Source of the DNA: Escherichia coli
GTDB taxonomy: Bacteria > Pseudomonadota > Gammaproteobacteria > Enterobacterales > Enterobacteriaceae
Length of the DNA stretch: 64,000 nucleotides
Assembly: GCF_030013595.1 (NCBI RefSeq)
Contig: NZ_CP122768.1
Strand: one strand, 5' to 3'
The position numbers and the translations under genes are program-made. Under the pieces are notes generated by a model. That model searched no databases. It was given only the letters and a program-made list of their open reading frames with translations, and had not been told where the DNA came from. This document shows, piece by piece, positions 4,296-59,905 of this stretch (positions are counted from its first letter, which is position 1; each line of letters opens with the position of its first letter).

Positions 4296-5483
4296 TTAGA
4301 ACTGGTAGACTAAGCCCACAGCTACGATATCATCGGTAGCGATGCCGTTTTCTTTGTAGAAGTCGTCGTCGTTGTCCAGCAGGTTGATTTTGTAATCAAC
4401 GTAGGTGGACATGTTTTTGTTGAAGTAGTAGGTCATACCAATATCAACATATTTAACCAGATCTTTGTTGGTGTAATGATGATTGCCCTGGCTGTCGAAG
4501 TTATCACTATTTACACCGCCTAAATCCTTACCTTTAGATTGCAGGTAAGCGATGGACGGGCGCAGACCGAAGTCGAACTGATACTGAGCAACCACTTCAA
4601 AGTTTTGGGTTTTGTTAGCGATCGCATCAGCATCACCGTAACCAGTCATGTTACGGGTTTCAGCATACATAGCTGCTAAGTAAACGTTATTAGCGTCGTA
4701 TTTAGCACCAACGGTCCATGCTTCTGCTGTTTCACCGCCAGCAGTTGCATCGAAGCGATCTCCATAACGAGTGTTATGAGTACCTTTGTGAACCTGATTG
4801 TCGGTACGGTCAGAGTTAGAGTAAGCAGCGCCCAGACTTAAACCAAAGTCAAAGTCATAGGAAGTGGACATACCGAAGCCGTCGCCGTTCTCTTTAGCTA
4901 ACTTACGGCCATTACCGTTACCAGAACCTTCCTGACCGAATAATCCATCATCTTCATTATTACCCTGATATTGCAGAGCAAAGTTCAGGCCATCGACCTG
5001 GCCAAAGAAGCCATTGTTACGGTAGGTTGCAACACCATTAGCACGACCGTTCATGAAGTTGTCGGCACCAGCATAGGTATCGCCACCAAATTCTGGCAGC
5101 ATATCGGTCCATGCTTCGATGTCATATACGACACCGTAGTTACGACCATAGTCGAAAGTACCATTCTGACCAAAGCCTAAACCTGCAAATGCCAGACGCG
5201 TTGCGGTATTACCTTTGTCGCTTTCAGGACCGTTTGCGCCAATGTTAAATTCCCACTGACCATAACCAGTGAATTGGTCAGCGATCTGAGTTTCACCTTT
5301 GAAACCGATACGGGCATATGACATGTCGCCATCGCTGCCAGCATCATCAGAGAAGTAGTGCAGGCCCGCTACTTTTCCGTACAAATCCAGTTTATTACCA
5401 TCTTTATTATAGACTTCAGCCGCATTTGCTGCGCCAGCAACTAATAACGCCGGGACCAGCATTGCCAGAACTTTTCTTTTCAT
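4296..5483 (-). CDS. yedS: OmpC/OmpF-family outer membrane porin, apparently intact
   Basis: ORF 4296..5513; signal peptide from ATG 5483 ([21 protein letters not shown]); porin motifs; C-terminal aromatic residue. Confidence 0.8.
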
Positions 5484-6111
5484 TATGTATTCCCTTGTGA
5501 TTATAATCTTCATGAATATATCAATAAGTGCTGTTATCCAAAAAAAAGCACATTTGGATACTATTCTATGAAGTTCATTTTATTTTAAAGATTACATGTA
5601 ACAAATGTATTTAAAAGATTTCAAAATGTTTCCAATCTGTTTAATATAATTCAGAATTATGAATTCTGAATATAAATATTCACGAATATTATGAATGCAT
5701 ATCAATATGTTATGAGTTGAGCGGAAACATAGGGAGTATCAATGATTGTTGTGCTAAACGGCTGGTGTGATCTCGCGCACATTAATGAAGGCATAAAAAA
5801 AGCCGGCATCATGCCGGCCCAAAAAATATAAACAAGACGATAAAAGGCTAATAACGGAAGCATCATGACACAGAATAATAAAAAGGGATAATTGTAATCA
5901 GTGCTAATATATTGATTGAATGAATTAATAAAGCCGATATCAAAGATAAATAAAATCGCTCAAAACGATTTTTCCTGTATTCACTGCCATTGCGCAAAAA
6001 TTATCTATTTGTTCAAAAAATGATTGAGTCTTGACTGGCTCATCCAATGTGGAAAAATGTGACTTTTATCACATAATAGTACTAAGTCTGAATTTTCCGG
6101 GTTATCTCAAA

Positions 6112-10165: not shown

Positions 10166-11083
10166 ATGCTTTTGGCCGGGAGTAGTTTACTGACGTTGCT
10201 CGATGATATCGCCACACTGCTGGACGATATTTCCGTGATGGGCAAACTGGCGGCGAAGAAAACCGCCGGTGTATTAGGGGATGACTTATCGCTCAATGCG
10301 CAACAAGTTTCAGGCGTGCGGGCCAACCGGGAACTTCCCGTGGTCTGGGGCGTGGCGAAAGGATCGCTGATCAATAAAGTGATTCTGGTGCCGCTGGCGC
10401 TGATCATCAGTGCGTTTATCCCGTGGGCGATTACGCCACTGTTGATGATTGGCGGCGCGTTTCTCTGCTTTGAAGGGGTAGAGAAAGTGCTGCATATGCT
10501 GGAGGCGCGTAAACATAAAGAAGATCCGGCGCAGAGTCAGCAACGTCTGGAGAAGCTGGCGGCGCAGGATCCGCTGAAGTTTGAAAAGGACAAAATAAAA
10601 GGGGCGATTCGTACCGATTTTATATTGTCTGCGGAAATTGTCGCCATCACGCTGGGGATTGTGGCCGAAGCGCCGTTGCTTAATCAGGTGCTGGTGCTTT
10701 CAGGCATCGCGCTGGTAGTGACCGTGGGCGTCTACGGTCTGGTAGGGGTTATCGTTAAGATTGATGACCTGGGGTATTGGCTGGCGGAAAAATCCAGCGC
10801 ACTGATGCAGGCATTAGGTAAAGGGTTATTGATCATTGCGCCCTGGCTGATGAAAGCGTTATCGATTGTCGGCACGCTGGCGATGTTCCTCGTCGGCGGT
10901 GGGATTGTGGTACATGGAATTGCGCCGCTGCATCACGCCATTGAACATTTCGCCGGGCAGCAAAGTGCAGTGGTGGCGATGATATTACCGACTGTTTTAA
11001 ATCTGATTCTTGGTTTTATCATCGGCGGCATCGTGGTGCTGGGAGTGAAAGCAGTAGCGAAAATGCGTGGTCAGGCACATTAA
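10166..11083 (+). CDS. yedI: DUF808 inner membrane protein
   Basis: 305-aa ORF, hydrophobic, conserved position. Confidence 0.85.
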
Positions 11084-11161
11084 TACTCGCACTGGCTATT
11101 ATGCAAAATTCGCCATCTTCAACTAAGGTGAACAAGTTTCACTCGAAAAAAGGAGGCGAGT

Positions 11162-11404
11162 ATGAGCTTTATGGTTAGTGAGGAAGTTACGGTTAAAGAG
11201 GGCGGCCCGCGGATGATTGTCACTGGATACTCCAGCGGTATGGTTGAGTGTCGTTGGTATGACGGTTACGGGGTCAAGCGGGAAGCTTTTCATGAAACCG
11301 AGCTTGTTCCGGGGAGGGGAGTCGTCCTGCGGAAGAAGTTTGAAAGGGTATCATTAACACCAGGCCGGATCACATCCGGCCTGGTGTACCAATGCCTGCA
11401 ATGA
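11162..11404 (+). CDS. yodC: small protein YodC, C-terminus altered by apparent frameshift
   Basis: 80-aa ORF; N-terminal 50 aa match recalled YodC; ORF then reads through the downstream hairpin. Confidence 0.6.
   Translation: MSFMVSEEVTVKEGGPRMIVTGYSSGMVECRWYDGYGVKREAFHETELVPGRGVVLRKKFERVSLTPGRITSGLVYQCLQ
11358..11386 (+). terminator. GC-rich palindromic hairpin (REP-like or terminator) downstream of the expected yodC end
   Basis: caccaggccggatcacatccggcctggtg is a perfect inverted repeat. Confidence 0.45.
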
Positions 11405-11513
11405 ATGATAGTCGCGTCTTATCATGCCACCATTATAAAATTATCGCTGTTTTGCGGTACGTTATCGCCGGGTTATGCCAGAATCATAAAAAAGCAGGTT
11501 GGGTGTCGTCAGG

Positions 11514-14038
<2,525 letters not shown>

Positions 14039-42649: not shown

Positions 42650-43107
42650 TTATTTTCCTCGTCATGTTGCAATGAAAATTTGCGGTGAAAAATGTTAAGG
42701 CGGCGGAGTATACCATAAGCTTCGCTAAAAATAGCAGTGGTTGTTTTTTGAGCGTGATATCGGCAGTGCTATAAAATACGTTAATATAATGACCAATAAA
42801 TATTTTTATCATGAATGTTTTTTGCCCGTATTGTTCGGGTTAATTAATGTTACATATTCAGCGGGCTGATTTTCATTTTTGCTGAATAAAGTCAATTTTT
42901 GTCACATTTCATCGCAGGGCTTACAGTGAAACGATCCCGGAAGCCGTTGGTGACGGGCGTGACCATAACTGTGGACAATCGAATTTACAAAAACGAGAGA
43001 AAAATCGAATACCCACCATTTTTAACGTTTCAAAGTTGCAATAAAAACCGCTAATATACGAATGACTAACTATCAGTAGCGTTATCCCTATTTCTGGAGA
43101 TATTCCT

Positions 43108-58593: not shown

Positions 58594-58649
58594 CTTGAAC
58601 CGCCCCGGAAATCCTGGAGACTAAACTCCCTGAGAAAGAGGTAAACAGG

Positions 58650-58976
58650 ATGACTAAAAATACTCGTTTTTCCCCCGAAGTCCGTCAGCGGGCGATTCGT
58701 ATGGTTCTGGAAAGTCAGGATGAATATGACTCACAGTGGGCGGCAATTTGTTCCATTGCCCCAAAGATTGGCTGTACGCCGGAGACTCTGCGTGTCTGGG
58801 TTCGCCAGCATGAGCGGGATACCGGGGGCGGTGATGGTGGGCTCACCAGCGCTGAACGTCAGCGTCTGAAAGAGCTGGAACGTGAAAATCGTGAACTGCG
58901 CCGCAGTAACGATATCCTTCGCCAGGCTTCCGCTTATTTTGCGAAGGCGGAGTTCGACCGCCTCTGGAAAAAATGA
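58650..58976 (+). CDS. IS3-family transposase OrfA
   Basis: 108-aa [25 protein letters not shown] recognised as IS629/IS1203 OrfA. Confidence 0.9.
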
Positions 58977-59863
58977 TGCCACTGCTGGATAAGCTGCGTG
59001 AGCAGTACGGGGTCGGACCGGTATGTAGCGAACTGCATATTGCCCCGTCAACGTATTACCATTGTCAGCAACAGCGACATCATCCGGATAAACGCAGTGC
59101 CCGTGCGCAGCACGATGACTGGCTGAAGAAAGAGATACAGCGCGTATACGATGAAAATCACCAGGTATACGGTGTGCGTAAAGTCTGGCGTCAGTTGTTA
59201 CGGGAAGGTATCAGAGTGGCCAGATGCACTGTGGCACGTCTCATGGCAGTTATGGGACTTGCCGGTGTTCTCCGGGGTAAAAAGGTCCGCACTACCGTCA
59301 GCCGGAAAGCCGTTGCCGCAGGCGACCGCGTAAACCGTCAGTTCGTGGCAGAACGACCTGACCAGCTGTGGGTGGCTGATTTTACTTACGTCAGCACATG
59401 GCAGGGCTTCGTCTATGTGGCGTTTATCATTGATGTGTTTGCCGGATACATCGTGGGGTGGCGGGTCTCATCGTCTATGGAAACGACATTCGTGCTGGAT
59501 GCGCTGGAGCAGGCGTTGTGGGCCCGTCGTCCGTCTGGCACCATCCATCACAGCGATAAAGGCTCTCAGTATGTGTCACTGGCCTATACGGAGCGACTAA
59601 AAGAAGCCGGATTACTGGCATCAACAGGGAGTACAGGCGACTCGTATGACAACGCGATGGCTGAGAGCATCAATGGTCTTTACAAAGCGGAGGTAATACA
59701 CCGTAAGAGCTGGAAAAAACGTGCAGAAGTGGAACTGGCCACACTAACGTGGGTGGACTGGTATAACAATCGACGATTGCTGGGAAGGCTGGGCCATACT
59801 CCTCCGGCAGAAGCAGAAAAAGCTTATTATGCTTCCATCGGAAACGATGATCTGGCAGCCTGA
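58973..59863 (+). CDS. IS3-family transposase OrfB (DDE integrase-like)
   Basis: 296-aa ORF overlapping orfA in -1 frame. Confidence 0.9.
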
Positions 59864-59905
59864 GTTCACAGATAAAACACTCTCCAGGAAACCCGGGGCG
59901 GTTCA

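Follow-up and report, generated by a model that had tools for sequence, protein, structure and literature searches.

In this stretch of Escherichia coli DNA (64,000 nucleotides of contig NZ_CP122768.1, hereafter the window), the known gene yodC is shifted out of frame by a single base, an ordinary type of lesion already flagged by NCBI's PGAP in other genomes. Four guanines stand in the record where other strains have five. The missing G is probably a homopolymer miscount, a one-base under-call, in a long-read-based assembly consensus. The record is one G short in the G5 run across yodC codons 50-52, and the last nine codons (EGSRPAEEV) and their stop are put out of frame. The ORF continues past its usual end, across the hairpin of the 3′ untranslated region, and closes at an in-frame TGA 61 nt beyond. 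If a miscount is the cause, the organism itself carries the normal G5 allele and makes the normal 60-aa YodC. The result is chiefly a point of annotation and quality control, as yodC in this record merits a frameshift flag, and it has little biological weight.

The yodC reading frames

A strong Shine-Dalgarno sequence, AAGGAGG (11150..11156, + strand), lies 5 nt 5′ of the yodC ATG and is unchanged in all strains aligned. As written in the window, the yodC ORF occupies 11162..11404 on the + strand, with an ATG start, 80 codons and a TGA. Its product reads MSFMVSEEVTVKEGGPRMIVTGYSSGMVECRWYDGYGVKREAFHETELVPG as far as the shift and RGVVLRKKFERVSLTPGRITSGLVYQCLQ beyond it, up to the stop. The ORF reaches 80 codons because the G-run at 11311..11314 (+ strand), the site of the one-base deletion, is G4; the clone-mates of this strain and nearly all other E. 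coli have G5. This run is the first G-run in the sequence ccGGGGaGGGGa, which covers 11309-11320. The shift spares the conserved YodC core, codons 1-51 (11162..11314, + strand), which is identical to that of the E. coli 60-aa YodC. The normal tail, EGSRPAEEV with its TGA at 11341-11343, is intact at 11314..11343 (+ strand), equals the tail of the 60-aa protein, and now lies in the -1 frame. In its place the ORF has an out-of-frame extension at 11315..11404 (+ strand), 29 codons and the TGA at 11402-11404, that is absent from every aligned orthologue.

The sequence-only reading had proposed a one-base frameshift in the yodC G-run, and named alignment to K-12 yodC as the test. That alignment confirms the proposal: K-12 has G5 and a 60-aa product, rather than the same run length as the window and an 80-aa product. 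The bases are GGGGG in K-12 BW25113, VCSW5, CS6L, CH10468 and HCP5S3_I2 where the window has GGGG, so that codons 50-52 change from CCG GGG GAG to CCG GGG AGG (CCA GGG GAG, a synonymous variant, occurs in some strains). Between the window and strain VCSW5, the single missing base is the sole difference across 417 bases. The gene order yedI-yodC-dgcQ is also that of K-12. The 30-codon read-through described after ...HETELVPG is there as well, consisting of 29 sense codons after Gly51 and a stop. The 60-aa YodC was correctly taken as the true product, since 60 aa is the length encoded in K-12 and in almost all other complete E. coli genomes. The same reading had placed EGSRPAEEV and the TGA at 11341..11343 in the +1 frame. 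The content and the coordinates stand, but the frame label does not: counted from the ATG at 11162, the tail reads in -1 (equivalently +2), since the final G of the Gly51 codon, at 11314, serves again as the first base of GAG, the codon that opens the tail. Taken together, the gene has the form of a frameshifted pseudogene, with a one-base indel relative to intact orthologues and homology that continues in another frame.

The downstream hairpin and the altered tail

A perfect 14-bp GC-rich hairpin with a 3-nt loop, CAC, begins 13 nt past the normal yodC stop (11357..11387) and is translated in the shifted frame. The sequence-only reading was right that the shifted frame crosses a perfect palindrome, the arms of which are 11357-11370 and 11374-11387. 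Folded with its flanks, the hairpin has an energy of -33.2 kcal/mol (z = -5.6 versus shuffles). The palindrome occurs once in the window against 0 occurrences expected by chance, and a 45-nt probe covering most of the hairpin finds one location per genome. The same downstream hairpin is present in K-12, and the MG1655 record lists no repeat feature at this site. The hairpin has the GC-rich stem-loop of an intrinsic terminator, a perfect 14-bp stem, but not the U-tract. The stem is followed by ACCAATGCC, and a scan of 10900-11700 returned 0 terminator-like sites. As no T-tract follows the stem, the hairpin is not a canonical intrinsic terminator. A search of 11000-11600 against Rfam gave nothing beyond a chance lncRNA match (E = 0.56).

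The yodC-dgcQ intergenic region (11344-11425) differs among strains. In strains such as EM10-18-28 (L005:779-925), a longer REP-like palindrome replaces the hairpin, and the extra REP-like sequence near the hairpin comes to ~67 bases in total. Judging from these alignments, the region 3′ of yodC appears to be a variable site for palindromic elements. Further downstream, an A-to-T change at window position 11504 converts a Shine-Dalgarno-like GGGAG to GGGTG, 9-13 nt upstream of the annotated GTG start of dgcQ (11514). This change is derived in the window's lineage and common to the clone-mates, and it might lower translation of dgcQ, a cellulose-regulating diguanylate cyclase.

The 80-aa ORF matches Pfam DUF2158 (PF09926) over residues 9-47 with 30.5 bits, against a gathering cut-off of 22.3; the 60-aa form scores 31.4 bits. 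Neither form was matched in an NCBIfam search, and a PDB sequence search for YodC returned nothing meaningful. We aligned 14 sequences of YodC, taken from E. coli and from enterobacterial genera related to it. Gly51 is the last invariant residue in the alignment. The tail after it is less conserved between genera than any other part of YodC and varies in sequence, yet it always ends 8-10 residues on, and all 14 orthologues are 59-61 aa long. The 80-aa ORF falls outside this family length, and adding back one G restores it. In the AlphaFold2 model, residues 1-53 form a confidently predicted barrel of five strands, with block means of pLDDT of 82-92 over residues 1-50. In the 80-aa form, pLDDT is <50 for residues 54-80, and the 29-residue extension is predicted to be disordered. 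By residue count the normal nine-residue tail has a net charge of about -2, versus about +5 for the extension. In structural comparison, the YodC core is matched best, though with weak E-values, by small barrels of the SH3/KOW-like type (NdhS, Ssl0352).

In Salmonella, mass spectrometry has detected YodC, a small protein that depends on sigma-S (PMC5437024). For E. coli, a preprint reports that expression changes strongly in a yodC deletion mutant (10.1101/2025.03.20.643886). If the deletion is real, the DUF2158 core would be kept and the variable acidic tail swapped, giving a modest handle on the role of that tail. Ribosomes would also have to unwind the 3′ hairpin. Its melting by translation might lower the protection or definition of the mRNA 3′ end, with conceivable effects on 3′-end stability or on dgcQ.

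The deletion in the clone and in the species

The nearest complete genome, HCP5S3_I2 (99.9%), shows ~40 substitutions relative to the window across ~62 kb, and the yodC run is the only single-base indel between the two. When these differences were polarised with outgroups, ~10 substitutions at first appeared to be specific to the window. We located clone-mates by exact look-up of proteins that carry the strain's own substitutions: Dcm Q395H, FliK A342E and DcyD E108V. Each of these alleles occurs in 102-127 index blocks of a public assembly collection, and the window therefore belongs to a well-sampled clone. Look-up of a prophage helicase returned a widely shared prophage instead of more clone-mates.

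Four clone-mates (GCA_053639275.1, GCA_002968075.1, GCA_012650045.1 and GCA_049544575.1) align to the window along 8.1-12.4 kb without a single mismatch, homopolymer lengths aside, and carry the same substitutions that set it apart from the nearest complete genome. All four assemblies have G5 and a called 60-aa YodC. Since every clone-mate examined is G5, the G4 run is private to this assembly. Comparison of window 1716-49974 with GCA_053639275.1 yielded four differences, namely the yodC G-run, an A8/A9 tract and two SNPs. Both SNPs are private to the clone-mate, and at these positions the window agrees with other relatives. Within these ~48 kb, nothing but the missing G is private to the window, which has no private substitution there. 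A useful outcome for method is that clone-mate assemblies can stand in for read support on single-base indels.

The A8 tract (5540-5547) lies 5′ of an ompC-like porin gene and is A9 in three clone-mate drafts; it is a variable homopolymer in the porin promoter or leader region. We considered it as a second under-call in the window and rejected the idea, as HCP5S3_I2, SCU-482 and VCSW5 also have A8, which makes it the common state and A9 the derived one. No gaps separate the window from two relatives (L036 and L038) in its prophage part. In GCA_030347985.1, a long-read-scale clone-mate, a private G6-to-G5 deletion at window 48272 (L030 ~19285), a lesion of the same type as that in yodC, splits a small prophage gene.

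Several other variants lie in the window. The fliP gene (- strand, ORF 16926-17663) has a premature TAG at codon 87 (Q87stop, window 17405) that is derived relative to HCP5S3_I2 and outgroups. It is common to clone-mate GCA_053639275.1 (0 mismatches over 10020-31146, no fliP gene call), and it is therefore a real nonsense mutation at the level of the lineage, which is probably non-flagellate. The yedK gene (- strand) carries W201stop (TAG, window 27894), an allele that the VCSW5 annotation lists as an 'internal stop' pseudogene. HCP5S3_I2 is missing 11 bases at 4477-4487, and its ompC-like porin gene has a frameshift flag from PGAP; the window copy is intact. HCP5S3_I2 also has an ISVsa5 insertion in yecU (42702-42710) that the window does not have. 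An IS copy at 58596-59905 of the window is 95% identical to an IS3-family copy located elsewhere in relatives. Over window 1-42710 (compared with L008/L009), lineage-specific substitutions are mostly non-synonymous in both the window's clone and HCP5S3_I2. On the window side, 5/7 coding substitutions are non-synonymous (one of them nonsense) and 7/10 substitutions are transversions. This pattern is consistent with recent, weakly purged mutations.

The deletion is rare among complete genomes. We found the yodC locus in 5,363 of 5,426 complete RefSeq E. coli genomes, and surveyed them for G4 with a 44-base probe for which megablast seeds only when the G4 junction is present. The junction occurs in 2 of the 5,426, FORC_082 and UID2309220027. 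PGAP labels both genes (FORC82_RS09320 and ACYTV1_RS04630) as 'yodC, frameshifted' pseudogenes. Equivalent probes for G6 and for AGGG each found 0 among the 5,426, and a minority of complete genomes have AGGGG in place of G5. In a collection of ~15 billion proteins, the exact 80-aa product is absent and the 60-aa YodC is present on at least 1,000 contigs. The collection does contain ~80-aa proteins with the same PG/RGVVL junction (the slash marks the breakpoint), carried by other haplotypes; P0135 is listed on 24 contigs, P0136 on 12 and P0137 on 10. Many other ~80-aa YodC variants have breakpoints elsewhere in the gene, because any one-base deletion in yodC enters a single alternative frame that is open to 11402-11404.

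Contigs L014 and L016-L019, which have the G4 junction, also lack single bases at homopolymers in the neighbouring dgcQ, a pattern typical of noisy long-read assemblies. Descent of the G4 alleles as a single lineage, with the 'SLRPG' (AGA) SNP as its marker, was rejected, as that haplotype is present in 934 of the 5,426 genomes. A single lineage is also contradicted by the backgrounds of the G4 contigs, which differ (44-63 mismatches to the window). One separate allele type (P0019), in which a lone G is lost at codon 42, is found on 99 contigs and has no match among the complete genomes.

Origin of the missing base

An error in the consensus is, in our judgement, the best account of the missing G, and its main competitor is a real and very recent slipped-strand deletion from G5 to G4. 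A real deletion would leave the strain with a C-terminally altered 80-aa YodC, or effectively a pseudogene; we give this distinctly less credence, at roughly one chance in three. Homopolymer slippage is a normal mutational route, and the change may be tolerated, because the tail after Gly51 is the least conserved part of YodC. The PG/RGVVL breakpoint is found on several haplotypes, and some of the contigs that carry it (L010-L012, L015) have no other indels in 2.7 kb. Genuine nonsense mutations in fliP and yedK are already in the lineage; fliP Q87stop, for example, is common to short-read clone-mates. The quality of the assembly also speaks for a real mutation. Its other homopolymers of at least 5 bases are clean, and there is no further private 1-bp indel in ~62 kb, so that similar errors nearby are lacking. 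In 1716-49974, 229 homopolymers of at least 5 bases (15 of them of 7-8 bases) match the clone-mate, with the exception of one A8 tract. Poor polishing should leave more errors than this, and longer runs should fail before a G5 does.

Against a real mutation, G4 is in none of the clone-mates examined, all four of the independent clone-mate assemblies being G5, as expected if the lesion lies in the record rather than in the organism. No private substitution in ~48 kb marks a branch long enough to make an indel likely. In real divergence of E. coli, substitutions exceed indels by about 10:1 in mutation-accumulation work, and a lone homopolymer deletion without substitutions therefore fits a consensus error better. 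The deletion is found in only 2/5,426 complete genomes, both assembled as complete chromosomes, in which such errors are a recognised hazard at homopolymers. On other contigs, G4 recurs in unrelated backgrounds together with the dgcQ homopolymer deletions. The exact 80-aa product is missing from the ~15 billion proteins even though the clone's Dcm, FliK and DcyD alleles are listed there. The window also reads across the ~1.3-kb IS copy (58596-59905); one clone-mate contig of short-read type breaks off at 58595, the base just before it. The source assembly resolved this repeat, so long reads were probably used, and another long-read-scale assembly of the same clone has its own private G6-to-G5 deletion, the one at window 48272.

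As ALTERNATIVES, programmed frameshifting and phase variation were considered, and both fail their defining tests. It is very improbable that G4 is productively decoded, either as a functional 80-aa isoform or through a -1 slip of tRNA-Gly on the GGGG at 11311-11314 that restores wild-type YodC. The sequence would permit the slip: GGG (11312-11314) re-pairs perfectly as GGG (11311-13), after which GAG GGG AGU ... UGA gives the exact wild-type tail. The codon in the A site would be AGG (11315-11317), which E. coli uses rarely and decodes slowly. It is equally improbable that a real G4 and a -1 slip, aided by the AGG that the deletion created, let one gene make some 60-aa YodC alongside the 80-aa form, which, if true, would be a bacterial chromosomal case of compensatory frameshifting after a homopolymer indel. 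The two-frame layout is not conserved, though, with G5 or AGGGG in essentially all of the 5,363 genomes and G5 in the clone, and every orthologue aligned ends at 59-61 aa. GUU CCG GGG AGG does not fit the X XXY YYZ heptamer, and the hairpin (11357) is ~42 nt past the run, which is too far for a stimulatory structure (5-9 nt). We think still less of the idea of phase variation, with the G-run as a contingency locus that would switch YodC between two C-termini. The deletion does recur on several haplotypes, including the AGGGG haplotype as AGGG, and an adjoining second G-run also shows deletions (the PGEG/VVL variants). But the tract is just 5 nt long, the clone-mates are uniformly G5, many of the recurrent cases are on error-laden contigs, and the 5,426 genomes yielded 0 cases of G6, 2 of G4 and 0 of AGGG.

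A precedent for decoding across such a lesion is viral. In herpesvirus thymidine kinase, low-level compensatory frameshifting occurs on a G-run after an indel (review PMC5009743). The thymidine kinase 'savior indel' (PMC5009743) resembles the yodC case in that a G-run indel could in principle be corrected by slippage on that same run. The kinase gene has 7 Gs and its frameshifting has been measured, whereas yodC has 4 Gs and the slip is a matter of sequence logic. The residual homopolymer errors of long-read assemblies are also a likeness, being of the same class: a single-base deletion in a G/C-run that is private and absent from short-read-type clone-mate assemblies. A difference is that no further such error is found in ~62 kb of the window. 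The PGAP yodC pseudogenes of FORC_082 and UID2309220027 have the same G5-to-G4 deletion and the same PG/RGVVL junction as the window. Their haplotypes differ from it, with a T at the position equivalent to 11327 and other SNPs, and so these are independent events or independent errors. A further close counterpart is K-12 yodC itself (b1957, NP_416466.1), a 60-aa DUF2158 protein that shares residues 1-51, the Shine-Dalgarno sequence, the start, the locus and the hairpin with the window. K-12 has G5 and ends in EGSRSAEEV and a stop at 60 aa, and the window has G4 and 80 codons.
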